DNA of 64,000 nucleotides from Desulfovirgula sp. (GCA_020725625.1 DYET01000052.1:20805-84804); one strand, 5' to 3'; shown: positions 4,471-55,815, counted from the stretch's first letter. Numbers and translations: made by a program. The notes: generated from the letters alone by a model not told the origin.

Positions 4471-5589
4471 TTAGTTGATCAGCTGGTTGAGCGGGGTATA
4501 TTCAAGGCCGAGGGAGTCGGCCACTCCCTTGAAGGTAACCCTCCCGTCCAGGACGTTCACCCCGAGGGCAAGGGCTCCGTCCTCCAGGATCGCTTTTTTA
4601 TAGCCCTTGCCGGCGATTTTTAAGATGTAAGGCAGGGTGGCGTTGGTCAGGGCGAGGGTCGAAGTCCTGGCCACCGCCCCCGGCATGTTGGCCACACTGT
4701 AATGGACGACGCCGTGCTTGATATAAGTGGGATTTTCGTGGGTGGTTATCCGGTCGACGGTTTCCACACATCCTCCCTGGTCGATGGCCACGTCAACGAT
4801 AACCGAACCCCCGGACATTTGCCGCACCATTTCCTCGGTTACCACCTTAGGGGCCTTGGCTCCCGGCAGCAGCACCGCCCCCACCAGCAGGTCGGCATCC
4901 CTGACGGCGTCGGCCAGGTTGTAGTAGTTGGAAATCAAAGTCTTGACGCGGAAACCGAACATCTCGTCCAGCACCCTGAGCCTTGCCGGATCCTTCTCCA
5001 CGATGACCACCTCGGCTCCCATGCCCAGGGCTATTCTGGCGGCGTTGGTGCCCACGATCCCGCCGCCGACGATGACTACCCTGGCCGGCAGCACCCCCGG
5101 CACCCCGGACAAGATCACGCCCTTGCCGCCGTATTTTTTGGTGAGCAGCTGAGCCCCGACCTGCACGGACATTCTTCCCGCTATCTCGCTCATCGGTGCC
5201 AATAGGGGGAGGGACCTGTCCGGCAACTGGACGGTCTCATAGGCTATGGCTACAACCCTCCTGCTCATCAGGGCCAGGGTGAGGTCGTATTCGGGAGCCA
5301 GGTGCAGGTAGGTGAAGAGAATCTGTTCCTCCCTGAACAGGTCGTACTCGGACGGCTGCGGCTCCTTGACCTTCACGATCAACTCGGCGGCTTCGTATAT
5401 TTCCCTGGCGGTGCCCGCAATGACCGCGCCGGCGGCGGAGTAACTCTCGTCGCTGAAGCCGCTTCCCTCTCCGGCCGAGCTTTCCACCAGGACTTTATGC
5501 CCGTCCCTGACCAGGGCCGTTGCTCCCGCAGGGGTCAATGCAACCCGGTTTTCACTGTTTTTAATCTCCTTGGGTATGCCTACGATCAC
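4471..5589 (-). CDS. ald: Alanine dehydrogenase
   Basis: 372 aa. MIVGIPKEIKNSENRVALTPAG... and the VIVGGGIVGTNAA Rossmann motif are canonical Ald. Confidence 0.92.
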   Translation of the reverse strand: MIVGIPKEIKNSENRVALTPAGATALVRDGHKVLVESSAGEGSGFSDESYSAAGAVIAGTAREIYEAAELIVKVKEPQPSEYDLFREEQILFTYLHLAPEYDLTLALMSRRVVAIAYETVQLPDRSLPLLAPMSEIAGRMSVQVGAQLLTKKYGGKGVILSGVPGVLPARVVIVGGGIVGTNAARIALGMGAEVVIVEKDPARLRVLDEMFGFRVKTLISNYYNLADAVRDADLLVGAVLLPGAKAPKVVTEEMVRQMSGGSVIVDVAIDQGGCVETVDRITTHENPTYIKHGVVHYSVANMPGAVARTSTLALTNATLPYILKIAGKGYKKAILEDGALALGVNVLDGRVTFKGVADSLGLEYTPLNQLIN

Positions 5590-5766
5590 CTGTAAACAAC
5601 CCCTTCAAGCGATATTTTTCACAAGCCTTGACATTTAAGAACATTTTTTTTACAATCTGTCTGTGGAAATATATTATAGCTATTAATTATGCACGCTTCT
5701 TTCTGGAAGCGTATTTTTTTCCTGAAACGCCCCATAGACCACCCCCGACTGGAAGAGGGAAGAATG

Positions 5767-6567: not shown

Positions 6568-7775
6568 TACACACGTGGTACTTTTTCCGCTATGGTCTTA
6601 GTCTCCCGGGCAATCATCTTCTCTTCGTCGGTGGGGATGACCAGTGCCCTCACCGGCGATCCCGGCGCCGAGACATCCGCCTCCACCCCCTTTGCGGCGT
6701 TCTTTTCCCCGTCCAGAAATACGCCCATACAGGCTAGGTAGGAACAGATCCGGGACCTTACGCCGGGAGAGTTTTCGCCGATCCCCGCGGTGAAAACGAT
6801 GGCATCGAGGCCCCCGAGGGCCGGAACCAGGGAGCAGATGCCCATGGCCGCCCTGTAGGAGAACATCTCGATGGCCAGGTTCGCCCGGGCGTGGCCTTTT
6901 AGGGCCGCCTCTTCCAGGTCTCTGAAGTCGCTGGAAATTCCGGAAATCCCCAGTGCGCCGCTCTTTTTGTTCAGCACCTCCAGTACCCTGCCCGGGCCGG
7001 AACCCTCTTTTTCGGCCAGGAAGCCGACAATGGCCGGGTCGATGTCCCCGCAGCGGGTTCCCATCATCAGCCCCGCCAGGGGGGTGAGGCCCATGGTGGT
7101 GTCTTTGGATTTGCCGCCGTCAACCGCGCAGAGGCTGGACCCGTTTCCAAGGTGGCAGGTGATCATCTTTAGGTCCTCGATCCGGCGCCCCAGCAGTTCT
7201 GCGGCCCTCGAAGCCACGTATTTGTGGGAGGTGCCGTGGAAGCCGTATTTCCTTACCCGGTATTTTTCATAGTATTCGTACGGTATGGCGTACATGTAGG
7301 CATGGTCCGGCATCGTCTGGTGAAATGCCGTATCGAAAACGGCCACCTGTAAAGCATGGAAAATAAGCTTTTGACAGACCCGGATGCCCATGATATTGGG
7401 GGGGTTGTGCAGGGGGGCCAGTTTGCCGCATTCCTTCAGGATTTCCAGCACGCCGCCGTCCACCGCCACCGGGCTTTGAAAGTACTCTCCGCCGTGCACC
7501 ACCCGGTGGCCGACGGCCTGGATTTCCCCCGTTCCGGCTATCACCGCTAAATCCCCGCCGGTCAGGGCGCCGATGATCGCCTTCACGGCCTCGTAGTGAT
7601 CCGGCAGCGGGATGTCCAGGCTGAGGTCCCCCCGATCCGGAACGTGGTGAAAGAAGACCGACCCCGGCATGCCTATCCGGTCCGCCATCCCCCGGGCCAG
7701 CACCCGGTCGCGGTCCATGTCAAAGAGTTTGTACTTTACTGATGAACTTCCGCAATTAAGCACCAGGATCTTCAT
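6564..7775 (-). CDS. ackA: Acetate kinase
   Basis: MKILVLNCGSSSVKYKLFDM... is the canonical AckA N-terminus. The track ORF starts 3 codons earlier at a GTG (7784). ATG 7775 has GGGGTG upstream and fits the family start. Confidence 0.93.
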   Translation of the reverse strand: MKILVLNCGSSSVKYKLFDMDRDRVLARGMADRIGMPGSVFFHHVPDRGDLSLDIPLPDHYEAVKAIIGALTGGDLAVIAGTGEIQAVGHRVVHGGEYFQSPVAVDGGVLEILKECGKLAPLHNPPNIMGIRVCQKLIFHALQVAVFDTAFHQTMPDHAYMYAIPYEYYEKYRVRKYGFHGTSHKYVASRAAELLGRRIEDLKMITCHLGNGSSLCAVDGGKSKDTTMGLTPLAGLMMGTRCGDIDPAIVGFLAEKEGSGPGRVLEVLNKKSGALGISGISSDFRDLEEAALKGHARANLAIEMFSYRAAMGICSLVPALGGLDAIVFTAGIGENSPGVRSRICSYLACMGVFLDGEKNAAKGVEADVSAPGSPVRALVIPTDEEKMIARETKTIAEKVPRVY

Positions 7776-22157: not shown

Positions 22158-22227
22158 GCGGTCCCGCAAAATATGTGTGGTAAACTGATGAAAAATTATT
22201 TATAATTACTTTATCAATAATCAATGC

Positions 22228-22342
22228 GGTCCATGAAGGACGTGTCTTAAAGGCCCCGATTATGAATCGGCTGAAACGAGGCCACGGAGGCTCATTGCTC
22301 GCAGTGAATTGTGGGGGAATGGCCGTCGTGGTTTTGTTTTTT
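22228..22342 (+). promoter_or_regulatory. Structured 5' leader, copy 1 of the twin-hairpin motif (CC-AUGAA-GG, CC-ACGGA-GG), with terminator
   Basis: Hairpin GUCC-AUGAA-GGAC at 22229-22241. CCGAUU-aug-AAUCGG follows. GGCC-ACGGA-GGCU lies around 22282-22290. 22282-22292 pairs with 22321-22331, followed by UUUUGUUUUUU. TATAAT at 22201-22206. Confidence 0.55.
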
Positions 22343-22382: not shown

Positions 22383-23999
22383 GTGTTTTCAAAGTGGAGC
22401 TTAAAAAAGACGCTGGCCGTGACAATGCTGCTGTTATTACCGGCCCTCGCCGCGTCCGGCTGCGGCGGGAAGCAGAAGGGTGGGGACAAGCCGGCGGAGA
22501 CAAAAGAAATTGTTTATACCGTCGCCGATCCCACGGGAGACTGGGGCTTCCCTTCCCCGTTCGCTCATTATACAAGGGGGCCGGGTTATATAAGAATGAG
22601 CTTTCTATTCGACACGCTGGTATGGAAGGACGACAAAGGGTATGTTCCGGCACTGGCCAAAAGCTGGGAGTATAACAGGGAAGAAAACGCCTACACGTTC
22701 AAGCTTCAGGAAAACGCCACCTGGCATGACGGCAAGAAGTTTACGGCGCGGGACGTCGCCTTTACCATAGAATACACCAAGGAAAACCCGTATCAGGGGG
22801 TGGACTCCGGTGTGGTCAAAAAGGCCGAGGTGTTAAGTGATCACGAGATAAAGATATCCCTTAGCAAGCCTTACGCGCCTTTTCTGGACTATATCGGCTG
22901 CACTTTGCCCATCCTGCCGGAGCACATATGGAGAGACGTGAAGTCCCCCCAGCAATACCAGCAGAAGGAGGCATTGATTGGGACGGGGCCCTTTACCCTG
23001 GCCGATTACAACAAGGAGCAGGGTACTTACCTGTACAGGGCTAACGACCGGTACTACCAGGGCAGGCCGAAAGTGGCGGAGATAAGATTTATTAAAGTGG
23101 GTGCCGAGGTGGTTGCCGCAGCATTGAGGCAAAAACAGGCCAGCGCAGCCCAGGTGCCTCCCGAGCTGAGCAGGGAACTGGAAAAGGAAGGGTTTAAAAT
23201 ACTGGTGGGCAAACACGACTGGGTGGCCAAACTGATGATCAACCACCAGAAGGAACCCTTTAATAAAAAGGAATTCCGGCAGGCTCTGGCCTATGCCGTG
23301 GACCGGAAGGCGCTTGTGGACACCTGCCTGAGAGGGCATGGGATTCCAGGCAGCCCGGGTTTTGTGCCGGCAGACAGCAAGTGGTACAACCCGGTGCTGG
23401 ACGGTAAGTATCCGCACAGTCCGGAAAAGGCCGCCGATCTAATCAAGGGGTTGGGGTACGAGAAAAAGGGCAATTATTTTGAGAAAAACGGCCAAGCGCT
23501 GGAAGTGGAGCTTCTAATCAGCGGCAAAGGGACCGGGGTGCCCGGTTCCCCGGGAGAGCGCGAGGGAGAAATGATTAAAAATCATCTGGAAAAACTGGGC
23601 ATAAAGGTCAACATGCGCGGGCTCGAGTCAAAGACTCTGGACAACAGGGTGGCTGAGTGGAAATTTGACATCGCGCTGACCGGTCACGGCGGTATGGGAG
23701 GTGATCCAGAGACACTTAACAGGATGATCCTGGGCAAAAGTTTCAACAGCGCCAGATATCAGAACAACAAAGATCTAAACGCGTTGCTGAATCAGCAGAT
23801 GGCTGCCATGGACGGCGAAAAGAGGGCCGAACTGGTGAAAAAAATACAGGAGCTTTATGCCGAAGAAATGCCCGCTCTGCCCCTGTACTCCCCCACCTGG
23901 TACTGGGCCCATGACGGCAGGGTAGACCTCTTTTACACTTTCCAGGGCGTGGCCAACGGCGTGCCCATACCGCTTAACAAAATGGCTTTCGTTAAATAG
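22383..23999 (+). CDS. ABC transporter substrate-binding lipoprotein, family 5 (peptide/nickel, OppA/DppA/NikA-like)
   Basis: Lipobox LAASGCGG, then the family-5 pattern (FKLQENATWHDGKKFTARDVAFT...). GTG 22383 follows AAAGGGTGG. The track starts 4 codons earlier. Confidence 0.88.
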   Translation: MFSKWSLKKTLAVTMLLLLPALAASGCGGKQKGGDKPAETKEIVYTVADPTGDWGFPSPFAHYTRGPGYIRMSFLFDTLVWKDDKGYVPALAKSWEYNREENAYTFKLQENATWHDGKKFTARDVAFTIEYTKENPYQGVDSGVVKKAEVLSDHEIKISLSKPYAPFLDYIGCTLPILPEHIWRDVKSPQQYQQKEALIGTGPFTLADYNKEQGTYLYRANDRYYQGRPKVAEIRFIKVGAEVVAAALRQKQASAAQVPPELSRELEKEGFKILVGKHDWVAKLMINHQKEPFNKKEFRQALAYAVDRKALVDTCLRGHGIPGSPGFVPADSKWYNPVLDGKYPHSPEKAADLIKGLGYEKKGNYFEKNGQALEVELLISGKGTGVPGSPGEREGEMIKNHLEKLGIKVNMRGLESKTLDNRVAEWKFDIALTGHGGMGGDPETLNRMILGKSFNSARYQNNKDLNALLNQQMAAMDGEKRAELVKKIQELYAEEMPALPLYSPTWYWAHDGRVDLFYTFQGVANGVPIPLNKMAFVK

Positions 24000-24036: not shown

Positions 24037-24207
24037 TTGACTTTTCTCCATATGTAAAATATAATTTAATTTAAAAGCTTGCCATGAAGGCATTCGGTCT
24101 TTGGCGTATTCGTTTGACAAACAATTATTAAAAAACCAAAGAAATGTAAAACGGCCACGGAGGTCCTCGTTTTGCCGGGAAAGGCAAAGGGAAACAGTGG
24201 CTTTTTT
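24037..24207 (+). promoter_or_regulatory. Internal promoter (TTGACT-17-TATAAT) plus structured leader, copy 2 of the twin-hairpin motif, ending in a GCCAC...GUGGC-U6 terminator-like stem
   Basis: TTGACT 24037-24042; TATAAT 24060-24065; UGCC-AUGAA-GGCA 24081-24091; UCUUUGG...CCAAAGA stem; GGCC-ACGGA-GGUC around 24155-24163; GUGGC 24197-24201 followed by TTTTTT. Confidence 0.55.
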
Positions 24208-24226: not shown

Positions 24227-25198
24227 GTGGATAAAAAAAACACGGCGATTAGCTATGGTATTGCTCTGCTGGTTATACTGACCCTTAACTTCGTACTGCC
24301 CAGGCTTATGCCGGGCGACCCGCTGCAGGCCATCTACGGGGATGAGGCATTGATTGCCATGACCCCTGAACTTAAGGCGGATATTGTCAGGAGATTTTCG
24401 CTGGACAAGCCGCTGGGGGATCAGTTTGCGGCATATGCGGCGGCATTGGCCAGGGGTGACCTGGGACACTCTTATTATTTCAACGCACCGGTTATAAATA
24501 TAATCCTCGGCCGGCTTCCATGGACACTGCTTTTAGTCGGCCTGGCGGTGGTCATATCTACTGCTGCCGGGCTGATCATGGGGATAGAGGCGGGATACAG
24601 ACGCGGCAGGGTTCCGGATCACCTAGTAATCGCGGGGATGATGCTGGTCAGCGGGTTTCCGGACTTTTTCGTGGGTATGCTTTTGTTGCTGCTGTTTGGT
24701 GTCACGCTGGGGCTGGTGCCAATAGCGGGGGGCATGACCCCGTACGCATCCCACAGCGGGTTGGCGGTCCTGCTGGACGTTATGCACCACCTGGCGCTGC
24801 CCCTGGCCTCGCTGGCGCTGGTCAGGCTGGGCGGGACCTGCCTGCTGGCCCGTAACACCATGGTGATTACGCTGGGGGAGCCGTTCATAACTACGGCTAG
24901 GGCCAAGGGCTGTCCCGATTACGCTGTCAGGTACAGACATGCAGGGAGAAGCACCCTGCTGCCAGTGGTTACGGCGGCAGGGCTGCAGCTGCCGCACATG
25001 ATATCCGGAGCATTGTTTGTGGAGATGGTTTTTTCCTATCCGGGCATGGGCACGATTCTCTACAACTCCCTGTTAACCAGGGACTACCCGCTTTTACAGG
25101 GCATTTTGCTTTTCATAACCTTAACGGTGCTGGCGGTCAACCTGTTGGCCGATCTGCTTTATATGAGAATTGACCCGAGGGTGACATATGCACGTTAA
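24227..25198 (+). CDS. ABC transporter permease (DppB/NikB-like)
   Basis: LPRLMPGDPLQ N-terminal motif and a BPD_transp_1 core. GTG 24227 follows GGGGAGAAG. The upstream part of track ORF 24101.. covers the leader and is not coding. Confidence 0.85.
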   Translation: MDKKNTAISYGIALLVILTLNFVLPRLMPGDPLQAIYGDEALIAMTPELKADIVRRFSLDKPLGDQFAAYAAALARGDLGHSYYFNAPVINIILGRLPWTLLLVGLAVVISTAAGLIMGIEAGYRRGRVPDHLVIAGMMLVSGFPDFFVGMLLLLLFGVTLGLVPIAGGMTPYASHSGLAVLLDVMHHLALPLASLALVRLGGTCLLARNTMVITLGEPFITTARAKGCPDYAVRYRHAGRSTLLPVVTAAGLQLPHMISGALFVEMVFSYPGMGTILYNSLLTRDYPLLQGILLFITLTVLAVNLLADLLYMRIDPRVTYAR

Positions 25199-26051
25199 TT
25201 ACTGGAGAGAGGTCAAAAGAAATGGTTTCGGAAAGGCGGGGCTGGCGATTATTCTGCTGATGGCCGCAACCGCCGCCGCCGCTCCCCTCATGGCCAAGTT
25301 CAGCCCAGGCGAGTACACGGGTCATATATTCCACCCGCCTTCGGCCAGGTTCTGGCTGGGTACCAACGACGTGGGGCAGGATATCTGGTCGCACCTGGTG
25401 TACGGGGCCCGCACGTCTTTGGCAGTGGCTTTCGGCGTTTCTTTTTTGTCGGTTGCCTTCAGCGTGCTGGCGGGTGGGCTGGCGGCCATAACTGGAGGGA
25501 CTTTGGACCGGCTGGTGATGAGGCTGGTAGACTCCCTGATCATAATCCCCCCTCTGGTGGTGGTCATACTGGTGGCTGCCTACGTCCGTCCAAGCCTGGT
25601 GCTGATGATCGTCATGTTGGCGGCCATAATGTGGCCGGGGGGGGCGCGGGTGGTCAGGTCCCAGGTGTTGTCCCTCAGGGAAAGAATGCACGTGGATGCG
25701 GCCAGGACTTTCGGTGCCGGCCGGGCATATTTGCTGCGAAGGCACATAATCCCAGAGATGGGGCCGATACTGACGGCGGTGCTGATACAAAACGCCCGCA
25801 GGGCGGTGTTCATGGAAGCGGGACTCTCGTTTCTCGGCGTTTCCGATCCCTCGGTGTGCAGCTGGGGTAAGATGATGCAGCACGCCCTCAGGTTTTCATA
25901 CCTGGAGGTGTGGAAATGGTGGCTATTACCTGCCGGATCAGCTCTTTCACTGACTATGGCGGGACTTATATACACGGGGTTTGCCTTGGAAACGGTTTTG
26001 AACCCGAGAATGAGGAAAGAGGCGGCACATGCTGACAATCAGGGGGCTTAA
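25188..26051 (+). CDS. ABC transporter permease (DppC/NikC-like)
   Basis: 287 aa with LGTNDVGQDIWS, typical of DppC/OppC N-termini, and 6 predicted TMS. Overlaps the neighbouring genes. Confidence 0.88.
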   Translation: MHVNYWREVKRNGFGKAGLAIILLMAATAAAAPLMAKFSPGEYTGHIFHPPSARFWLGTNDVGQDIWSHLVYGARTSLAVAFGVSFLSVAFSVLAGGLAAITGGTLDRLVMRLVDSLIIIPPLVVVILVAAYVRPSLVLMIVMLAAIMWPGGARVVRSQVLSLRERMHVDAARTFGAGRAYLLRRHIIPEMGPILTAVLIQNARRAVFMEAGLSFLGVSDPSVCSWGKMMQHALRFSYLEVWKWWLLPAGSALSLTMAGLIYTGFALETVLNPRMRKEAAHADNQGA

Positions 26052-27693
26052 GGTTTCATACAACGGGGTGCCGGTTATCAACGGGCTGGACATTTCTGTG
26101 ACCAAGGGAGAGGCGGTCTCGGTCATCGGCGAGTCGGGGGCCGGAAAAACCACCCTGGGCCTCTGCGTCATGGGGCTGGTGGAAGGGCAATGCTCGGGGG
26201 AAATCATAATTAACAACAGGAATATTTTTAAAATGTCCGGGGAGGACCTGAGAAAATCCCGCGGCAAGTTGATGTCCATGGTGTTTCAGAATACAGAAAA
26301 TGCCCTGCACCCGCTGTATACTGTGAAGGACCAGGTTGCGGAGGCGATTTTGTTGCACGAGAACGTGAGGAGATCCGAAGCGGTGGCACGGGCCGGCGAA
26401 ATATTGCATGCCGTGGGAATAGAGGGCGTCTGGTCGGAAGCCCACCCCCACCGGCTCAGCGGCGGGCAAAAACAAAGGGTTCTGATTGCTCTGGCCCTGG
26501 TCAACGGCCCGGAGGTGGTCATTCTGGACGAGCCTACGGCCTCCCTGGACGTGCTGACCAAAGAAGAGATCATCCTGTTGATAAAAAGGTTGACCAGGGA
26601 CAAAGCGACCCTGGTGATCACCCACGACATCTCCACGGCGGCCAGGGTCGGCGGTCGGCTGGCCGTAATGTACGCGGGCAAAATCCTGGAGGCCGGCCCC
26701 ACGGAAGAGGTGCTGTCAAATCCACGCCACCCGTATACCAGGGGCCTGATTAGGTCATATCCGGACATGTCGGCAACCAAGGACTTGCAGGGGATACCAG
26801 GCAGGATGACGCGCGGGGTTCCGGGCTGCCCTTTTCATCCCAGGTGCACCCAAAAGATATCCGTCTGTTACACTGAACCGCCGGCGCCGTTGGAAAGCGG
26901 CGACCGCCAGGTGGCGTGTCACCGCGGGGGTATTGTGCCGCTTTTGGAAGTGGAAGGGCTGGTCAAGACTTTTGGATCAATAGAAGCGGTGCGGGGTGTA
27001 AACCTCACCCTTTACGAGGGTGAGACTCTGGCCCTGGTGGGCGAGAGCGGATCGGGGAAGTCTACGCTGGCCAAGATGATTATCGGAATACACAGCCCCG
27101 ACAGCGGCGTTATCAGGCTGGAGGGGGAAATTCTCGCGGCCAGGCGCCCCGCTGAATTTTACCGCAAGGTGCAGATGGTGTTCCAGAACCCCGGTGAGTC
27201 CGTAAGCCACCGGATGAACGTGCTGGAAGTGGTAAGGGAGCCTCTGGACGTCAGGGGGAATGAATGCGAGGACAAAAAACTGGATACAGTCAGGCGTGTG
27301 CTTGACGAAGTTGAATTACCGGGGGACGATGAGTTTTTAAGTAAATACCCCCACCACCTGAGCGGGGGGGAGGTGCAAAGGCTGGCCATAGCCAGGGCGC
27401 TGGTGCTGAATCCAAAAATATTGATAGCCGATGAGCCGACGTCCGCCTTGGACGCCAGCGTGCAGGCCAAAATACTAAAGCTGCTGCTAAACCTGCAGGA
27501 AAAAAGGGGCCTGGCCATATTGATGATAACCCACGACATCGCCCTGGCCCGGAAGGTCAGCGACAGGATGGCGGTGATGCTGAAGGGGGAAATAGTGGAG
27601 GAGGGGCGCACGGCGGTTCTGTCTTCCGCGCCTGCGCACAGCTACACCAAAAGCCTGATTGGCTGTATGAACAAGAATAATGTTATCAAATGA
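26029..27693 (+). CDS. ABC transporter ATP-binding protein with two fused ATPase domains (DppD-DppF / NikD-NikE fusion)
   Basis: 554 aa with two Walker A sites (GESGAGKTT, GESGSGKST), two signatures (LSGGQKQR, LSGGEVQR) and an oligopeptide-type C-terminal extension (HPYTRGL...CPFHPRC) after domain 1. Confidence 0.9.
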   Translation: MLTIRGLKVSYNGVPVINGLDISVTKGEAVSVIGESGAGKTTLGLCVMGLVEGQCSGEIIINNRNIFKMSGEDLRKSRGKLMSMVFQNTENALHPLYTVKDQVAEAILLHENVRRSEAVARAGEILHAVGIEGVWSEAHPHRLSGGQKQRVLIALALVNGPEVVILDEPTASLDVLTKEEIILLIKRLTRDKATLVITHDISTAARVGGRLAVMYAGKILEAGPTEEVLSNPRHPYTRGLIRSYPDMSATKDLQGIPGRMTRGVPGCPFHPRCTQKISVCYTEPPAPLESGDRQVACHRGGIVPLLEVEGLVKTFGSIEAVRGVNLTLYEGETLALVGESGSGKSTLAKMIIGIHSPDSGVIRLEGEILAARRPAEFYRKVQMVFQNPGESVSHRMNVLEVVREPLDVRGNECEDKKLDTVRRVLDEVELPGDDEFLSKYPHHLSGGEVQRLAIARALVLNPKILIADEPTSALDASVQAKILKLLLNLQEKRGLAILMITHDIALARKVSDRMAVMLKGEIVEEGRTAVLSSAPAHSYTKSLIGCMNKNNVIK

Positions 27694-27882: not shown

Positions 27883-29007
27883 ATGAGCATTTGGCTTGAC
27901 GCGGCCTTCTGGGTCGGGTTGGCCCTGGCGGCGTCTGTAATTTCGGTGCGCCTTGGAATCTCGGTGGCCATGGTGGAAATCATGGTGGGGGTTGTAGGCG
28001 GAAATTTTCTGGGCCTGCACACCACGCCCTGGGTCGATTTTCTGGCCGGCTTCGGCAGCATACTGCTGACCTTCCTGGCTGGCGCAGAGGTGGACCCGAA
28101 GGTGCTCAGGTCCAAATTCAAGGAAAGCGTCTCCATAGGCGCCATGTCGTTCCTCTTTCCCTACCTGGCCTGTTTTGCCTACGCTTATTACGTGGCCGGC
28201 TGGGATTTGCAGGCTTCCCAAATAGCCGGGATTGCTATGTCGACCACCTCGGTGGCCATCGTGTACGCCGTAATGGTGGAAACAGGTCTTAACTCCACAG
28301 AGCTGGGGAAGATCATCCTGGCCGCCTGTTTTATCACCGACCTGGGGACAGTTCTGGCCCTTGGCATCCTATTCGCCCACTTTAATTACTGGCTCTACAT
28401 ATTCATGGCGGTCACGGCGGCAGCCTTCTTCCTGGTACCCAGGGCGGCCGGGTCGCTGGTAAAATCCCTTGGCGGCCGGGTGAGCCAGGTTGAAGTCAAG
28501 TTTGTTTATTTTATCCTCTTCCTGCTTGGGGGACTGGCGATAAAAGCCAACAGCGAAGCCGTGCTTCCCGCCTACCTGCTGGGCCTGTCCCTGGCCACTC
28601 TGCTGGCCGGGGAAAAGGATGTGCTGTACCGGATGAGGACCACCGCCTTTGCCGTGCTGACGCCGTTTTTCTTCCTGAAGGCCGGCCTGCTCATATCCCT
28701 GAAGGCGCTTTGGATGGGTCTTTTGATCATCCTTGTCTTCCTCCTGGTCAAGGTGGCGGCCAAATTCACCGGGGTCCTGCCCCTTACAGTGTTTTTCAGG
28801 TTCGGCAGGAGGAATTCCATGTACACCACCCTGCTGATGTCCACCGGCCTTACCTTCGGCAGCATTTCTGCCATGTTCGGCCTGACCCACAACATCATCA
28901 ACCAGGCCCAGTACTCGGTCCTGGTCACGGCAGTTGTTCTCAGCGGCGTTATCCCGACTCTATTCGCCCAGGCCTTTTTCAGACCGGACGGGGGATCTCA
29001 AAATTGA
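27883..29007 (+). CDS. Cation:proton antiporter (Na+/H+ exchanger family, CPA1/CPA2-type, no RCK domain)
   Basis: 374 aa and highly hydrophobic, with about 11 TMS. GGAGGTGGG RBS. Confidence 0.8.
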   Translation: MSIWLDAAFWVGLALAASVISVRLGISVAMVEIMVGVVGGNFLGLHTTPWVDFLAGFGSILLTFLAGAEVDPKVLRSKFKESVSIGAMSFLFPYLACFAYAYYVAGWDLQASQIAGIAMSTTSVAIVYAVMVETGLNSTELGKIILAACFITDLGTVLALGILFAHFNYWLYIFMAVTAAAFFLVPRAAGSLVKSLGGRVSQVEVKFVYFILFLLGGLAIKANSEAVLPAYLLGLSLATLLAGEKDVLYRMRTTAFAVLTPFFFLKAGLLISLKALWMGLLIILVFLLVKVAAKFTGVLPLTVFFRFGRRNSMYTTLLMSTGLTFGSISAMFGLTHNIINQAQYSVLVTAVVLSGVIPTLFAQAFFRPDGGSQN

Positions 29008-48546: not shown

Positions 48547-49500
48547 GTGAGGCAAAGGGTAAATACCGCCGGAGTATCGATTATAGCGAGCCTCGCCCTG
48601 ACAGCGGGCAAACTGGTGGCCGGCGCCGCCACGGGATCGGCCAGCGTTTTTGCCAGCGGGATTCATTCCGGCCTGGACGCGATGGCCGGCGGGCTTTCCT
48701 ATTTTTCAGTCAACCAGGCAGCAAAGCCGGCTGACGAGGACCACCGGTACGGCCACGGTAAATATGAAAATGTCGCCGCCGTGGCCGAGGCCCTGTTTAT
48801 GCTCCTGGCCGCTGCGCTTATCCTGTTCAAGGCCCTGCCGGGGATTTTCCGGGGCGGCACTGAGGTTCGCCTAATCGACCTGGGGATGGCCGCCGCCGGC
48901 GTATCGGCCCTGATCAGTTTTTTGGTTTCGGCCATGCTGGCCGGTGCTTACCGGAGGACCGCCTCCGAAGCGTTTCTGGCCGACTTGAAGCACGCCAGGA
49001 TCAACGGCGGAGCCTCTGCGGCCGTCTGTTTGGGAATGGCCGCCGTTAAATACACCGGGTGGACGGTCATCGATCCTCTCATGGCCGTGGCGGTTACCCT
49101 GATCCTGTTCAGGGAGGGATACGGCCACCTGAAAAAGTCGGCCGGCGGGATAGTGGATGTCAGACTTTCCCGGGAAGAGGAGGAAGCGATCAGGGAAGTC
49201 CTTGCCAGCCACGGGGGAAGGTACGTGCAGTACCACGCCCTGCGCACCCGGCGGTCGGGGCCGGACCGCTACGTCGACCTGCACCTGGTGGTCCCCAGGG
49301 ACCAGGTAATTTCGTTGACTCACGAAATCTGCGACAGTATTGAAAGAGACGTCCGGGAGAGACTGCCGGGCATCAATGTACTGATCCACGCCGAACCCTG
49401 CCGTCCGGTCAGCGGAGAGTGCAGTAGTTGCGGCATAGGTAGAACCGTGCGGGGTGCCGAAGAGGAGTCTGCCGACTGCACCGCCAAACCTGGTTCTTAA
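48547..49500 (+). CDS. Cation diffusion facilitator (CDF) family metal exporter
   Basis: TM helices with the HSGLDA motif and HRYGHGKYE, plus a C-terminal cytoplasmic domain. GTG start. Confidence 0.85.
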   Translation: MRQRVNTAGVSIIASLALTAGKLVAGAATGSASVFASGIHSGLDAMAGGLSYFSVNQAAKPADEDHRYGHGKYENVAAVAEALFMLLAAALILFKALPGIFRGGTEVRLIDLGMAAAGVSALISFLVSAMLAGAYRRTASEAFLADLKHARINGGASAAVCLGMAAVKYTGWTVIDPLMAVAVTLILFREGYGHLKKSAGGIVDVRLSREEEEAIREVLASHGGRYVQYHALRTRRSGPDRYVDLHLVVPRDQVISLTHEICDSIERDVRERLPGINVLIHAEPCRPVSGECSSCGIGRTVRGAEEESADCTAKPGS

Positions 49501-49710: not shown

Positions 49711-50466
49711 GTGCTTCCGGTAATCGACGTGCAGGAAAAACTGGATTTGATCCGGAGCGGGGACGGCCGGACAAGGGAGGAATTGATCGAGGCACACCTT
49801 CATTTTATTGCCCGGGTGGCTGCCAGGGTGTGCGGCAGAACCCTGGAATGGGGCAGGGACGATGAGCTGAGCATTAGCCTGGAAGCATTCAACGAGGCCA
49901 TCGACCGTTACGACGAGAAACGCGGGGTTCCTTTTCCGGCCTTCGCAAGGCTGACTATAAAAAGCAGGATTACTGACTTCCTCCGGAGGCAGCGCCGCCA
50001 TATCGATCACGGCGGGGGGTCGCTGGATGACGGCAGCCGCGAATCGTCGGCTGTTGAGATTTCCCGGGCCTGGGACCGGTATCTGGATCAGGAAGCGGCC
50101 AGGGAAAGGGAGGAGGAAATGGCGGAATTCCGGAAGATTATCGCTCAATTCGGGATATCCTTCGACGATCTGGTAAGGGCCTCCCCAAAGCACAGGGACA
50201 CCAGGTCCAATCTGCTGAGTATCGCCAGGCACCTGGCCGGGAACCGGGAGCTGTTCGACCAGTTGATGACCACCGGGAAGCTGCCGGTGGCGGCCCTGTC
50301 GAAGCGGTGCGGGGTCCATGTCAAGACCATCGAGCGGGGGCGCAAGTACATCATAGCCACCTCGCTGATCTGGCATTTCTGTGAGGATTTCCTTTACCTT
50401 TGCTCTTTCATTAAACCGCCGGAGAAGGAGAATGGACCAGATGGCAGGGCGGGCCATTATTCTTGA
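49711..50466 (+). CDS. sigI: RNA polymerase sigma factor SigI
   Basis: DDELSISLEAFNEAIDRYDEKRGVPFPAFARLTIKSRITDFLRRQ matches the SigI-family region 2. Followed by an RsgI_N-type anti-sigma gene. Confidence 0.8.
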   Translation: MLPVIDVQEKLDLIRSGDGRTREELIEAHLHFIARVAARVCGRTLEWGRDDELSISLEAFNEAIDRYDEKRGVPFPAFARLTIKSRITDFLRRQRRHIDHGGGSLDDGSRESSAVEISRAWDRYLDQEAAREREEEMAEFRKIIAQFGISFDDLVRASPKHRDTRSNLLSIARHLAGNRELFDQLMTTGKLPVAALSKRCGVHVKTIERGRKYIIATSLIWHFCEDFLYLCSFIKPPEKENGPDGRAGHYS

Positions 50467-51601
50467 GGTAAAAAAAGGTGTCTGCACGGTGATGACCCCC
50501 GAGGGCCAGTTCCTCAGGGTTAAGATGAGGGGGGACTTCAGGCCGGGGCAGGAAATCACGCTGCCGGAGGGCCGCCGCGGGTATAGCAGGCTGGCCCTGC
50601 TGGCCGCCAGCCTGATCCTTTTGCTGGCTGCCACCGCCCTTTGGAAGGTACTGTTGCCGCCGGCGGTGGCGGCCTACGTCAGCCTTGAAATCAATCCTGC
50701 AATTGAGCTGGCGCTGGACGGGAAAAACGTGGTTCGCGGGGTCAGGCCGCTGGACAGCGGCGGGGAAGAACTGGCGGCCGGGCTCAAACTGGTCGGGTTG
50801 CCCCTGGAAGGCGCCGTAGACCGGGTAATCACAGCCGCCGTGAACAAAAACATGATCGTATTTGAGGACGGCGTTGTGGTATCCACCGTAACCCCGGCAG
50901 ATAATCTGGCCGACCCCTCCGGGCTTGACCTGCTGATCAGGAACACGGTTGAGGGTTCCTTGAAGTCCCGGGGGATCGGAGCCAGGGTGCTGGTGGGTCA
51001 CGCCTCGGCGGAAATTCGGGAAAAGGCCGTCAGAGCCGGGATTCCGACCGGCCGGTACATGCTATACCTGGATGCTGCCAGGAAGGGGGTTTCCGTGGAA
51101 CCCGAGGCATTAAAGAAAAAGAACCTGGTTTCGATAGAAAGAGAGATTAAAATCAAGTTGGGGGACGTTCTGGAAGTGAATGCCGGCGGCCGTGGGACCG
51201 ATTCCGGGCCGCGCCGGGACGGGACCCGCGCCGGGGACGGCCGGGAACATGACCGGGTTGTGGTGGAAACCGGCCGGGACCAGGGCCGGGACAGCAACCC
51301 GGCAGGATCGGCCCCGGGGCCGGCCGGGCAGCCCGGGGAAGGTCAGGAGGGAGTAGGGAAGGCGGTAGAGGAAAAAAAAGATGAAAAAGATATAAAAGAC
51401 ATAAGGGAAGACAAAAAAAACACTGAAGACAAAAAAGACACTAAAGAAAGCGAGGCTCGGGGCAGGGGCCTGGAAAAAAGCGGACTGCAGCAGACGGGGA
51501 TGCCCCGGGATCCGGGCGGCAAGGAACACGGCCAACGGCCCCCAGCCGCGAGGGGGACCGATCAGGGAAGAGAGGGGGGTGGCGGCTTAAGCCGGCCGTA
51601 A
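50441..51601 (+). CDS. rsgI: Anti-sigma-I factor RsgI-like (RsgI_N domain, one TM helix, extracytoplasmic region with a low-complexity tail)
   Basis: MAGRAIILEVKKGVCTVMTPEGQFLRVK is the RsgI N-terminal domain pattern. TM helix LALLAASLILLLAATALW. The start could also be ATG 50432. Confidence 0.75.
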   Translation: MAGRAIILEVKKGVCTVMTPEGQFLRVKMRGDFRPGQEITLPEGRRGYSRLALLAASLILLLAATALWKVLLPPAVAAYVSLEINPAIELALDGKNVVRGVRPLDSGGEELAAGLKLVGLPLEGAVDRVITAAVNKNMIVFEDGVVVSTVTPADNLADPSGLDLLIRNTVEGSLKSRGIGARVLVGHASAEIREKAVRAGIPTGRYMLYLDAARKGVSVEPEALKKKNLVSIEREIKIKLGDVLEVNAGGRGTDSGPRRDGTRAGDGREHDRVVVETGRDQGRDSNPAGSAPGPAGQPGEGQEGVGKAVEEKKDEKDIKDIREDKKNTEDKKDTKESEARGRGLEKSGLQQTGMPRDPGGKEHGQRPPAARGTDQGREGGGGLSRP

Positions 51602-53158: not shown

Positions 53159-53335
53159 TTGATCGGGCGCTTGGAAAAAGATATAATCAAATAAGCAGCG
53201 GGACCACGGAGGTCCTGTTACCGGTAGCAGCCAAAAATGTAAGTGGAAGGAATGGCCATGAAGGTCTGGATCCGCCGTAGGCGGTTATGTCGTCTGGACT
53301 TTTGTGGCTTACTTTTTTCCGGAATTGTGAGGCTG
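53159..53335 (+). promoter_or_regulatory. Promoter (TTGATC-17-TATAAT) plus structured leader, copy 3 of the twin-hairpin motif (order inverted)
   Basis: TTGATC 53159-53164; TATAAT 53182-53187; GGGACC-ACGGA-GGUCCU 53199-53215; GGCC-AUGAA-GGUC 53254-53266; CCGCC-gua-GGCGG follows; long-range GUAAGU...GGCUUAC stem, then U6 (53303-53308). Confidence 0.5.
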
Positions 53336-54124
53336 ATGAAAATGTTCGGGCCTGCCTGCGCAAGAACCGGCATCTTCCTTTACAGGATTGACCCCAGGAT
53401 CAAGGTGGTGTCCTTGTTCGGCTTCGTGGCGGTGGTTTCTTCCCTGACCTCGGTGCCCTTTCTGCTGGTTGCGGCCCTGATTATAACCGTCCTGTCCCTT
53501 TTTTCCGGCCTGGGCCCGGGCTGCCTGCTGCGCAGGGTGGCCCTGGTGCTGCCCTTTGCAGGGGTCATGCTGGCCGTTATTCCCTTCGCGGTTCCGGGCC
53601 AGGCGCTTTTTGGCATCAAGCTGGGGCCTCTCGCCCTGGCTGCCACGGAACAAGGGTTGGACCGGGCCGCGGTTCTTTCCCTGAGGATACTGACAGCCGT
53701 TCTGGCGGTAAACGCCCTTACCGCCACCACGCCTTTTTCGGAATTGATGAGGGCGTTCAGGGAGCTGAAAATCCCGGGGGTTTTCGTGCAGGTGCTGGAA
53801 TTTACGGTCAGGTACTTGTTTGTCCTGGCCGGGGAAGTTGACCGGATGAGGCTGGCCCGCAGGTCGAGGTGTTTTGAGTCCGGCGGCACCCTCCTGAACA
53901 GGGCCGTTTTCAGGACGCTGGGGCAGATGGTGGGAGTGCTGTTTATCAGGTCATGGGACAGGGGAGAAAGGATATACTGTGCCATGCTGTCCAGGGGTTA
54001 TTCAGCGGAGGCTGGCGCAGGGGGCCGGGCGCGCGGAATCAGGTGGGGGGACCTTTGCTGGGGGGTAGCCATCCTGGCTGCAGCGGTCGGCTTGAGGATT
54101 TTTGAAAGCGGGGCCGCCCGGTAA
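53336..54124 (+). CDS. cbiQ: Energy-coupling-factor / cobalt-type transporter transmembrane component (CbiQ/EcfT family)
   Basis: LYRIDPRIKVV start region and ARRSR coupling motif (LARRSRCF). The start is uncertain: ATG 53336/53342, or the longer in-frame form from ATG 53258. Confidence 0.8.
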   Translation: MKMFGPACARTGIFLYRIDPRIKVVSLFGFVAVVSSLTSVPFLLVAALIITVLSLFSGLGPGCLLRRVALVLPFAGVMLAVIPFAVPGQALFGIKLGPLALAATEQGLDRAAVLSLRILTAVLAVNALTATTPFSELMRAFRELKIPGVFVQVLEFTVRYLFVLAGEVDRMRLARRSRCFESGGTLLNRAVFRTLGQMVGVLFIRSWDRGERIYCAMLSRGYSAEAGAGGRARGIRWGDLCWGVAILAAAVGLRIFESGAAR

Positions 54125-54225
54125 CCCTGCAGATGTTAGCAATTGGGGCGCTCCGTGGACTGTGTGATCAAAATTGGAGGCCGCAGGCTTCTTCAGCCTG
54201 GGCCGAACAGGTCGGGGGAATAATA

Positions 54226-55056
54226 GTGGCCATTATTGAAGTCGATAACGTTTATTATACATATAAAGACGGCACCGAGGCCCTGAGGGGCCTCTCACTT
54301 TGCATCGAGGCGGGGGAGAAGGTGGCCCTCCTGGGACCGAACGGGGCCGGAAAATCCACCCTTCTCCTGCATTTCAACGGCATCAACCTGCCCCGCAGGG
54401 GAAGGGTGACCGTATTGGGACGGGAAGTCAACAGCAAATCAGAAAAGTGGGTGCGGTCGAGGGTGGGCCTCGTCTTCCAGGACCCCGACGACCAGGTTTT
54501 TTCGTCCACGGTCTGGGAGGATGTGGCCTTCGGTCCCCAGAACATGGGCCTGGACCGCCGGGAAATCGAGAGGAGGGTGGGGGACGCCCTTGAGGCGGTG
54601 GGGATGCAGGATTACCGCCAGAGGCCGCCCTACCACCTTAGCTACGGCCAGAAAAAAAGGGTGGCCATCGCCGGCATCCTGGCCATGCTTCCAGAGATTA
54701 TCGTGCTGGACGAGCCCATGGCCTTTCTCGATCCCAGGGGCAAGGACACTCTGGCGGAGATACTCAACCGGTTACACACCGGGGGTCGGACCATTGTCAT
54801 CGCCACCCACGACGTGGACTTCGCTGCAGAATGGGCCGACCGGGTGATTATCGTCAAGGATGGGAAAACCCTGGCCCAGGGCGGACGGGAGCTGCTGCAG
54901 GACCCCGGGCTGATGGAGGAGGCCCAACTGAGGTTTCCGGTGGTCAGCAAGGTATTTTCCTGTGTGCCCGAACTTAATGTTAAGCCTCTGCCCTTGACCG
55001 TCGACCAGGCGGTGGATATAATTAGAAAACTGATAAACAACGGAAAGCCGGAATAA
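54226..55056 (+). CDS. cbiO: Cobalt/nickel-type ECF transporter ATP-binding protein (CbiO family)
   Basis: GPNGAGKST, LSYGQKKRVAIAG and VLDEP motifs. GTG 54226 follows GGGGGAA. The upstream part of the track ORF is not coding. Confidence 0.88.
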   Translation: MAIIEVDNVYYTYKDGTEALRGLSLCIEAGEKVALLGPNGAGKSTLLLHFNGINLPRRGRVTVLGREVNSKSEKWVRSRVGLVFQDPDDQVFSSTVWEDVAFGPQNMGLDRREIERRVGDALEAVGMQDYRQRPPYHLSYGQKKRVAIAGILAMLPEIIVLDEPMAFLDPRGKDTLAEILNRLHTGGRTIVIATHDVDFAAEWADRVIIVKDGKTLAQGGRELLQDPGLMEEAQLRFPVVSKVFSCVPELNVKPLPLTVDQAVDIIRKLINNGKPE

Positions 55057-55062
55057 GAAGGG

Positions 55063-55815
55063 ATGTTTGAGATTATGGACAATGTCTCTCCCGAAGTGGT
55101 AAGAGGTTACTCGGTCTGGATTGAACCCGAAAGCCTGCACTACCACGCGGGAAGTGTGGTGCGGGCCAGGGCCCTTTGGGGGTGCATGATGAGGCGGGAT
55201 GGCGAGGCTGACACCGGGGGTTGGAACGCCTATGCCCTGGATCCCGGGGGGGCCGTGCTGGAGGCGGACATAGCCCGGGGTGAGGGAAACCTTTACAAAG
55301 TGGCCTTTTTTTCCGGCGGGGAGGGATTGTACAACCTCGTACTGGAGAACAAGGCCGGGATATACTGCAGGCTTCCCGGCGGAGAGTGGACCCGGGGACC
55401 CCGGGACAGCTGTCCCGGTGCGGTTGAATCGGCCAGGTTTTTCCAGAGGGCCAGGATCCCGGTTCCGGTGGGGCACCACATCCGGGGCAGGCTTGAGAGC
55501 GTAAGCGCGTTCGGCCTGGATGTATTCAGCCGGGAGTTCGGGGAGTACCGCCGGGGGGACAGCATAGTGATAAAGGTTTTTTACAATGGCCGGCCCCTTC
55601 CCGGCGCGGATCTGAAGGCTGCCTGCCATCTTTTTTCCGGTACGGAATACCCCTGGCGGGGTAGAACTAGCAAAGACGGGGAGGTTTCCTTCACCTTCCC
55701 TGAGAGGGGGCACTGGATGTTCACCTGTACCTTGGACGACGGGCAGGACGGCGGGGGGGCGGGATACGGCAGAACCGTGTATACCTCCAACTTTGTGGTG
55801 GCCGGGGTCAGGTAG
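55063..55815 (+). CDS. DUF4198-domain protein (nickel/cobalt-uptake-associated, CbiK/NikK-like) lacking a signal peptide
   Basis: GDSIVIKVFYNGRPLPGADL ... SKDGEVSFTFPERGHWMF matches the DUF4198 pattern as I remember it. The ORF starts 7 nt after the cbiO stop, so there is no room for a leader peptide. Confidence 0.65.
   Translation: MFEIMDNVSPEVVRGYSVWIEPESLHYHAGSVVRARALWGCMMRRDGEADTGGWNAYALDPGGAVLEADIARGEGNLYKVAFFSGGEGLYNLVLENKAGIYCRLPGGEWTRGPRDSCPGAVESARFFQRARIPVPVGHHIRGRLESVSAFGLDVFSREFGEYRRGDSIVIKVFYNGRPLPGADLKAACHLFSGTEYPWRGRTSKDGEVSFTFPERGHWMFTCTLDDGQDGGGAGYGRTVYTSNFVVAGVR

Follow-up and report, generated by a model that had tools for sequence, protein, structure and literature searches.

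Upstream of three transporter loci in a 64 kilobase (kb) stretch of DNA from Desulfovirgula sp. (GCA_020725625.1 DYET01000052.1:20805-84804), the same pair of small hairpins recurs in the 5' leader, raising the question of what these twin hairpins control and what they respond to. The whole analysed stretch is called the window here, and all coordinates are counted from its first letter. The core of the motif, CC-AYGRA-GG, is present twice per leader in all three leaders, and the second hairpin of each leader shares its sequence with the 5' arm of an intrinsic terminator. Together with comparative data from other anaerobes, these features lead us to regard each leader, on balance, as a switch of transcription attenuation that operates by factor-dependent antitermination, with a logic like that of ANTAR targets, within a single regulon that most probably serves nickel acquisition.

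Twin hairpins and overlapping terminators

Two 9-mers carry the motif. CCATGAAGG is found at 22231, 24082, and 53256 and CCACGGAGG at 22282, 24155, and 53204, which are the leader positions given in an initial annotation of the window, and a search of both strands upheld its claim that CCACGGAGG is confined to the three leaders. CCATGAAGG occurs six times in the window versus 1.07 expected, and none of 100 shuffles gives six. Only one copy outside the leaders had been listed (30858, + strand), and two others, at 2913 (+) and 12348 (-), had been overlooked; all three are single copies inside coding sequence.

The 9-mer positions and minimum-free-energy folds place two stems in each leader, all on the + strand. 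In copy 1, hairpin 1 (GUCC-AUGAA-GGAC, 22229-22241) is followed by hairpin 2 (GGCC-ACGGA-GGCU, 22280-22292), the putative antiterminator, with a stability of -4.8 kcal/mol on its own; in copy 2, the corresponding stems are UGCC-AUGAA-GGCA (24080-24092) and GGCC-ACGGA-GGUC (24153-24165, -4.2 kcal/mol). The loop order is reversed in copy 3, where hairpin 1 (AGCGGGACC-ACGGA-GGUCCUGUU, 53197-53219) has 9 base pairs (bp) and the ACGGA loop, and hairpin 2 (GGCC-AUGAA-GGUC, 53254-53266, -4.3 kcal/mol) has the AUGAA loop. The linkers between the stems are 38, 60, and 34 nucleotides (nt) long in copies 1, 2, and 3, and every leader retains hairpin 1 in its minimum-free-energy fold, the total fold energies being -49.1, -36.8, and -55.1 kcal/mol (z-scores of -3.8, -1.5, and -4.4). 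A third small hairpin, CCGAUU-AUG-AAUCGG, which includes AUGAA, lies within the linker of copy 1 (22256-22270, +), and a comparable extra hairpin, CCGUA-UGAAG-UACGG, stands between hairpins 1 and 2 of another locus, L019; leaders of this kind may hold three binding sites.

Folding places the 9-mer of hairpin 2 in the 5' arm of a long stem that is followed by a U-run in all three leaders, and each of these stems has the G+C-rich composition and trailing U-run of an intrinsic terminator. The copy 1 terminator (22280-22342, +; -29.8 kcal/mol) holds all of hairpin 2 in its 5' arm, with GGCCGUCGUGG (22321-22331) as its 3' arm and UUUUGUUUUUU as its tail. In the copy 2 terminator (24153-24207, +; -22.8 kcal/mol), GGCCAC (24153-24158) pairs with GUGGCU (24197-24202), after which six U residues follow. 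The copy 3 terminator (53254-53318, +) has GGCCAUGAAGGUCUGGA as its 5' arm, an inner CCGCC/GGCGG hairpin, UCUGGACUUUUGUGGCU as its 3' arm, and six U residues at 53313-53318. A simple terminator scanner misses these terminators because their loops are longer than 8 nt. On its own, hairpin 2 contributes -4.2 to -4.8 kcal/mol, compared with -19 to -30 kcal/mol for the terminators. The initial annotation had proposed that the small hairpin and the terminator are mutually exclusive in copy 1; this holds, but the restriction to copy 1 does not, since copies 2 and 3 share the arrangement. The accompanying proposal of a ligand- or protein-controlled antitermination architecture agrees with a comparative set of 33 leaders, in 26 of which five or more bases of the second 9-mer fall within the minimum-free-energy terminator; most of the other seven also overlap, on inspection, once the correct U-run is used. 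In one Nitrospira metagenome-assembled genome (locus L135, ~5440-5500, +), the hairpins are near-adjacent (GGCC-AUGAA-GGCU and then CACC-ACGAA-GGUG), the 3' arm of the terminator pairs with hairpin 1 rather than hairpin 2, and another CC-ACGAA-GG lies downstream, making this a rearranged form of the switch.

As hairpin 2 excludes a terminator that is far more stable, the default outcome should be termination, and something must therefore keep hairpin 2 closed. In the proposed mechanism, the RNA would start 10-25 nt 5' of hairpin 1, a stable stem (4-9 bp) that would always be folded, and the weak hairpin 2 (~4 bp) would follow after a non-conserved linker of 34-64 nt. The loop and 5' stem of hairpin 2 are also part of the 5' arm of the far stabler terminator. 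When the factor is absent, the terminator would form and the operon would be off. A trans-acting factor would bind the closing C-G pairs and the A-Y-G-R-A loops of both hairpins, and the bound factor would hold hairpin 2 closed, preventing the terminator from forming and allowing RNA polymerase to read through. The factor would be active at low nickel, because the genes under its control encode uptake systems.

Covariation and comparison with known RNA elements

The 33 leaders that carry the covariation analysis were partly picked by eye for having stems, and their inner two pairs and loop were fixed by the search pattern. In hairpin 1, 84.8% of the cells are paired versus 63.1% in shuffled sets, double changes number 65 versus 25.2 expected, and the third pair, which adjoins CC/GG, is paired in 33/33 leaders through five pair types (GC, AU, GU, UA, and CG). 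The corresponding values for hairpin 2 are 68.4% versus 59.2% paired cells and 36 versus 25.2 double changes, with support for ~4 bp only; for either hairpin, 0/500 shuffles match the covariation score. The stem of hairpin 1 is thus solid and that of hairpin 2 marginal, which fits a hairpin unable to outcompete a terminator unaided. Sliding the 3' partner by +1, into a hexaloop register, brings pairing to background (50% in hairpin 1 and 44% in hairpin 2), which identifies the loop as a pentaloop, in agreement with the CC/GG-closed AYGRA pentaloop over a covarying stem, twice per leader, that had been read from the window. Loop position 4 is mostly A. The two 9-mers are 40-69 nt apart in this set, and the linkers between stems span 17-95 nt in the metagenomic and relative sets, with no conservation of linker sequence.

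Two covariance models were built, R1 from all 33 leaders and R2 from 30 leaders of other organisms only. Within the window, R1 recovers no leaders besides the three known copies, which score 31-40 bits against 10 bits for the match that follows; among loci selected by protein homology, it recovers 14 leaders with E < 0.1. R2, built independently of the window, also places the three leaders at the top, at 34.7, 27.1, and 17.9 bits (E = 2e-7, 2e-5, and 5e-3); its next matches are the second half of copy 2 at 12 bits and a best unrelated site at 9.4 bits. No Rfam 15 model matches at the motif in the whole window, the three leaders, or 34 related loci, either at the gathering score or at E <= 10, in line with the earlier remark that no known riboswitch class fits.

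The window leaders resemble the targets of the ANTAR proteins EutV, NasR, and AmiR, which also have two small leader hairpins, the first always folded and the second sharing terminator sequence, as well as conserved loop bases and closing pairs over covarying lower stems, and several copies per genome that form a regulon. An ordinary ANTAR target, in which an ANTAR-domain response regulator encoded elsewhere in the genome binds both hairpins, would have the same logic, down to the conserved loop A and G (PMC3369931, PMC8934654), and ANTAR systems are encoded in the relatives Desulfofarcimen acetoxidans and Pelotomaculum thermopropionicum (PMC3369931), yet we consider this explanation quite improbable. 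ANTAR loops have six nucleotides, of which the first is A and the fourth G (PMC3369931), the flipped G4 makes the sole base-specific contact (PMC3369931, PMC8934654), and Met172 of EutV has been proposed to shut out smaller loops (PMC8934654). The loops described here are instead pentaloops with A1, G3, and A5 (A-Y-G-R-A), or UGAA tetraloops, with the hexaloop register at background and A predominating at position 4. The linkers differ as well, at 34-69 nt (17-95 nt over all sets) compared with ~5-12 nt in the eut operon, and EutV loses antitermination when the linker is lengthened by 20 nt (PMC8934654). ANTAR targets serve nitrogen metabolism rather than nickel acquisition, and the matches reported for D. 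acetoxidans and P. thermopropionicum are nitrogen-metabolism loci, not those found here (PMC3369931). A motif search and a hand-written probe revealed no ANTAR domain in the window or across 208 loci, and no ANTAR gene near the motif. A canonical ANTAR target was rejected on the basis of the loop register, the identity of loop position 4, and the linker length.

The variation of the loops bears on whether the RNA itself could be the sensor. No complementary covariation links the two loops in the 33 leaders, all loop combinations occur, and the ACGAA/ACGAA combination permits no loop-loop pair, and a kissing model was rejected on these grounds; the hairpin 1 loop also varies in size, with tetraloop, pentaloop, and hexaloop forms. 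A true riboswitch would have its two pentaloop hairpins jointly bind a small ligand that stabilizes hairpin 2 against the terminator; possible ligands are metal ions, complexes of nickel with a chelator, and metabolites signaling demand. The strict conservation of the loop and closing pairs in four phyla and the lack of a regulator gene consistently near the motif argue for such a sensor, the two hairpins and variable linker are reminiscent of guanidine-II, and the NiCo riboswitch shows that RNA is able to sense nickel or cobalt. We nevertheless judge a riboswitch to be unlikely, as stabilization of hairpin 2 means ON, and a nickel importer that nickel itself activates would feed back positively; in addition, the loops lack the covariation expected of loop-loop contact, hairpin 1 accepts loops of different sizes, and no Rfam riboswitch model matches. 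For the factor-dependent switch, a protein is favored because the hairpins are minimal, because the linker is non-conserved and variable in length, because the loops do not covary for mutual pairing, because hairpin 1 accepts loops of four to six bases, and because an importer induced by the metal that it takes up would run away. Tandem hairpin-plus-terminator units, present in some metagenomic leaders, were likewise counted in favor of protein recognition.

Other RNA elements share single features with the motif. Guanidine-II (mini-ykkC) also has two small conserved-loop hairpins with a variable linker and acts as an ON switch, but its ACGR tetraloops pair with each other, its control is translational, and its genes encode efflux proteins; neither ACGR tetraloops with inter-hairpin C-G pairing nor an Rfam match to this class was found in the leaders. 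The NiCo (czcD) and cobalamin riboswitches and NikR also govern genes of nickel and cobalt homeostasis, but the two riboswitches are large, unrelated structures, and NikR acts on DNA. The Rfam models for NiCo (a four-way junction aptamer) and cobalamin (with its B12 box) do not match the leaders, while a positive control for the cobalamin model in another locus, L157, was found at 115.9 bits. PyrR binds a hairpin with a purine-rich pentaloop closed by CC...GG, and its CC-AGAGA-GG fits A-N-G-N-A. Despite the likeness of this CC...GG-closed pentaloop hairpin, PyrR stabilizes an anti-antiterminator, so that binding turns transcription off, and it has one site per attenuator and controls pyrimidine synthesis genes; the Rfam PyrR model does not match the motif. 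CsrA was also rejected, since its GGA loop motif fits ACGGA only and not the dominant AUGAA and ACGAA.

The survey of 224 motifs by Weinberg et al. in 2017 is said to include an orphan motif named NiCo-AnGGAG, which reportedly occurs in Clostridia upstream of nickel and cobalt transport genes and consists of two hairpins with AnGGAG. The twin hairpin is probably this motif: ACGGAG is the core of CCACGGAGG (CC-ACGGAG-G), and the window motif likewise has nickel and cobalt transport genes downstream in a member of the Clostridia. NiCo-AnGGAG, however, reportedly has AnGGAG in both hairpins, whereas the window copies have ACGGAG in one and AUGAAG in the other, and it reportedly belongs to Clostridia, whereas the present motif reaches four phyla, with hairpins in the other phyla that mostly read AUGAAG or ACGAAG. 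Rfam 15 gave no match in the ~35 instances tested, and NiCo-AnGGAG is possibly not among its models. The name is absent from the main text of the 2017 survey, and literature searches with the motif name, nickel attenuation or riboswitches, CooT, and DUF3842 returned no description of the element. The window copies are filed as dual-hairpin antiterminators, and the present analysis adds the AYGRA pentaloop consensus, the general overlap with the terminator, the spread over four phyla, and the link to DUF3842, FmdE, and CooT.

Distribution, downstream genes, and the probable link to nickel

The binding protein encoded behind copy 1 groups the organism with Peptococcaceae and Pelotomaculum relatives, and the motif also stands 5' of orthologous operons in three relatives, as the initial annotation would lead one to expect of a functional element. 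The orthologous operon of Peptococcaceae BICA1-7 is preceded by UUCC-AUGAA-GGAU, 40 nt between the 9-mers, GGCC-ACGGA-GGCU, and a terminator. D. acetoxidans has two divergent copies, one 5' of a binding-protein transporter operon and the other 5' of an operon for a CooC-like ATPase, a TrmO-like protein, and FmdE, and the version in P. thermopropionicum, with AAGAA and AUGGGA loops, lies 5' of a methyltransferase gene and a transporter. Among 80 metagenomic loci picked solely by homology to the binding protein, a second hairpin and terminator were found 5' of the operon in ~20. These motif-bearing operons often begin with genes for TrmO-like proteins or FmdE with a zinc finger, and their hairpin 1 often has a GC-UGAA-GC tetraloop or a UAGAA, UCGGA, or AAGGA loop.

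A pattern scan with one genome per species, requiring two CC-AYGRA-GG 9-mers 40-70 nt apart and a following T-run, yielded at least 120 stretches; its scope is that of a sample rather than a full census, with no per-genome copy numbers. About 35 of these stretches are genuine leaders, with two distinct covarying stems and an overlapping terminator, which extends the covariation beyond the three window copies. Genuine leaders on the Bacillota side come from Syntrophomonas, Desulfotomaculum, Clostridium subterminale, Anaerosolibacter, Oscillospiraceae, Lachnospiraceae, and Thermoanaerobacterales, and others from several Desulfobacterota, Nitrospirota, Sphaerochaeta, other Spirochaetales, and Brevinema, so that the element is found in four phyla (Bacillota, Desulfobacterota, Nitrospirota, and Spirochaetota). 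AUGAA is the commonest loop of hairpin 1 in the scan set and ACGAA that of hairpin 2, and both the strand and the placement between promoter and start codon are constant among the leaders.

The scan also bears on whether the 9-mers have any regulatory role, or have arisen by chance or from repeats beside ordinary terminators, or act as the DNA operator of a transcription factor. About 70% of the scan matches listed are chance matches or arrays like those of clustered regularly interspaced short palindromic repeats (CRISPR) with identical hairpins, and CCATGAAGG, as noted above, also lies three times in coding sequence of the window. Against this stand the covarying stems with a fixed loop, which are the opposite of a palindromic operator, the constant strand and placement, the recurrence of the same downstream gene families in several phyla, and the recovery of all three window copies by the independently built R2; the comparative sequence data leave this explanation effectively refuted. 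The chief false positives of pattern searches are repeat arrays of Oscillospiraceae, Ruminococcus, Clostridiales, Bacteroidota, and Caldilineaceae, whose unit holds a CC-ACGGA-GG, CC-ACGAA-GG, or CC-AUGAA-GG hairpin (L146, L141, L101/L138/L181, L185, L186, L143, and L178). Perfect palindromes were seen 5' of two operons for binding proteins and FmdE with a zinc finger that have no twin hairpin, GTTGCAATTAATTGCAAC in L036 (~5660-5680) and CTGCAACTAGTTGCAG in L065 (~5690-5710), and a DNA-binding regulator that stands in for the RNA switch in those lineages may use them as operators. A thiamine pyrophosphate riboswitch lies a few kb 3' of the twin-hairpin transporter operon in two metagenomic relatives, L009 (13239-13342) and L011 (12542-12610).

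Across phyla, the genes behind genuine leaders bear out the proposed association with nickel and cobalt genes. The transporter genes encode family-5 binding-protein ATP-binding cassette (ABC) systems, CbiM (in some cases fused to PDGLE), CbiQ, and CbiO; further genes encode DUF4198, CooT alone or fused to DUF4198, FmdE with or without a zinc finger, and DUF3842, as well as energy-coupling factor (ECF) S-components paired with a UbiE-type methyltransferase, TonB-dependent receptors, ExbB, FeoAB, a CooC-like ATPase, and a TrmO-like protein. Of these, CooT, like CooC, takes part in inserting nickel into carbon monoxide dehydrogenase. When 30 genuine leaders were compared with 90 other loci among the scan matches listed, CbiM was present at 9/30 versus 0/90, DUF3842 at 9/30 versus 1/90 (a locus that also carries the motif), ECF S-components at 6/30 versus 0/90, and FmdE and CooT each at 4/30 versus 0/90. 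A cluster of DUF3842, sometimes FmdE, and CooT, in some cases with DUF4198, recurs in L085, L019, L109, L144, L169, L205, L207, and L208, sometimes under a twin hairpin and sometimes with its own promoter; in L208, it adjoins genes for HypA, a CobW/HypB-like protein, and a hydrogenase subunit. The maturation of carbon monoxide dehydrogenase is the only process in which proteins of this cluster are known to have an assigned role. L205 (~7130-7230) and L208 (~7150-7250) have a common leader, GGGUAUA..GGAAACGG.UAUGCCUCCC...GGAAAGGAG, which in L205 lies 5' of a molybdopterin oxidoreductase gene and looks like a molybdenum-cofactor RNA motif.

The metal can be narrowed through the Nitrospirota locus L157, in which a twin hairpin stands 5' of one CbiM gene and a cobalamin riboswitch (5238-5427, +; the positive control above) stands 5' of its paralogue, the second CbiM gene lying 1.5 kb downstream of the first. 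As the two paralogues are divided between two kinds of RNA control, the twin hairpin more likely serves nickel than cobalt or B12.

In the window, the genes behind the three copies are those originally assigned to them, in agreement with Pfam. Copy 1 precedes a gene for an SBP_bac_5 substrate-binding lipoprotein of the peptide/nickel type (22383-23999, +; Pfam E = 4e-77), whose protein has weak NCBIfam similarity to nikA, CntA, and Opp4A, all below the cut-off. Behind copy 2 are two Opp/Dpp-type permease genes (24230-25198 and 25188-26051, +; Pfam BPD_transp_1) and a fused double ATPase gene (26029-27693, +; Pfam ABC_tran and oligo_HPY), and behind copy 3 (53342-55815, +) are genes for CbiQ (up to 54124, +; Pfam CbiQ), an ABC ATPase (54133-55056, +; Pfam ABC_tran), and a DUF4198 protein (55063-55815, +; Pfam DUF4198) that is homologous to the C-terminal part of CooT-DUF4198 fusions. 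Each leader has one sigma-70-like promoter site 10-25 nt 5' of hairpin 1. The likely -10 box of copy 1, read from the sequence, is TATAAT (22201-22206, +), 22 nt 5' of hairpin 1, and a consensus scan of the + strand found no full -35/-10 match there; copy 2 has TTGACT-17-TATAAT (24037-24065, +; 11/12 consensus positions) and copy 3 has TTGATC-17-TATAAT (53159-53187, +; 10/12). With a separate promoter-like site for each leader, the loci form three units of transcription; copy 2 serves as an internal checkpoint, placed after the gene for the binding protein and before those for the permeases.

The annotation of the window places no regulator gene near any of the three copies. A fluoride riboswitch (RF01734, 27780-27839, +; 44.3 bits, E = 5e-9) comes right after the transporter operon, followed by a gene of the Na+/H+ exchanger family (27883-29007); in relatives, a gene for FmdE with a zinc finger stands at this place, after the ATPase gene. 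A few kb 5' of copy 3 are genes for a sigma-70-family factor and an RsgI-like anti-sigma factor (49711-51601, +) and for a cation-diffusion-facilitator efflux protein (48547-49500, +), and no link between these genes and the copy 3 motif was found.

Candidate factors and significance

If a protein keeps hairpin 2 closed, the gene families near the motif offer candidates. The commonest non-transporter families are DUF3842 (12/38 loci) and FmdE (11/38 loci). DUF3842 is the first regulated gene in some loci, and in others has its own promoter directly 5' of the regulated operon, a placement that is typical of regulators. Candidate factors are therefore DUF3842, FmdE with a zinc finger, and a CooT-like protein, all of which co-localize with the motif. 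FmdE proteins with a zinc finger form intertwined dimers, and their metal site held zinc and nickel in one crystal (PMC2954224); RNA binding and metal sensing were suggested as possible roles by the authors of that structure (PMC2954224). It is conceivable, and we put it forward tentatively, that the twin hairpins are the target of a new class of metal-responsive antiterminator, a small nickel-binding protein (such as DUF3842, a zinc-finger FmdE dimer, or a protein resembling CooT) that would bind RNA only when nickel-free.

Several observations weigh against a protein-dependent switch of this kind. A motif search and tblastn found no gene for an RNA-binding regulator (ANTAR, LicT-CAT, TRAP, CsrA, or Hfq) in the window or the 208 loci, although this is a weak test because the probe sequences were written by hand. 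The predicted structure of DUF3842 is a generic Rossmann-like domain with a predicted local distance difference test (pLDDT) value of 83.6 and a best template modeling score (TM-score) of 0.5; neither its sequence nor its fold turned up an RNA-binding relative or an informative solved relative. The motif is also absent within 5 kb in two of three loci picked by their DUF3842 protein. The small size of the hairpins does not speak against direct ligand binding, because two-hairpin riboswitches such as guanidine-II exist. In addition, the loop conservation in the scan set is partly by construction, the 9-mers having been fixed in the search, and the choice of the 33 leaders by eye inflates the pairing percentages; the gene-context enrichment and the protein-selected metagenomic set are free of that selection bias.

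To our knowledge, control of nickel uptake has so far been described at the DNA level, through NikR, and the sole known RNA that senses nickel or cobalt governs efflux. A conserved attenuator 5' of nickel importers, chaperone genes (CooT and the CooC-like ATPase), and TonB-dependent receptors suggests that a second circuit acts on the RNA, in syntrophs, acetogens, sulfate reducers, Nitrospirota, and spirochaetes. The motif is a practical marker for nickel-acquisition genes, and can tell nickel from cobalt CbiM paralogues. Interest centers on the sensor and its signal: as the element is small, modular, and present in several copies per genome, the sensor is directly approachable, and its identification would assign a function to a widespread family (DUF3842 or the FmdE of non-methanogens). 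If the proposed switch is correct, anaerobes of at least four phyla would regulate nickel uptake through RNA alongside NikR.

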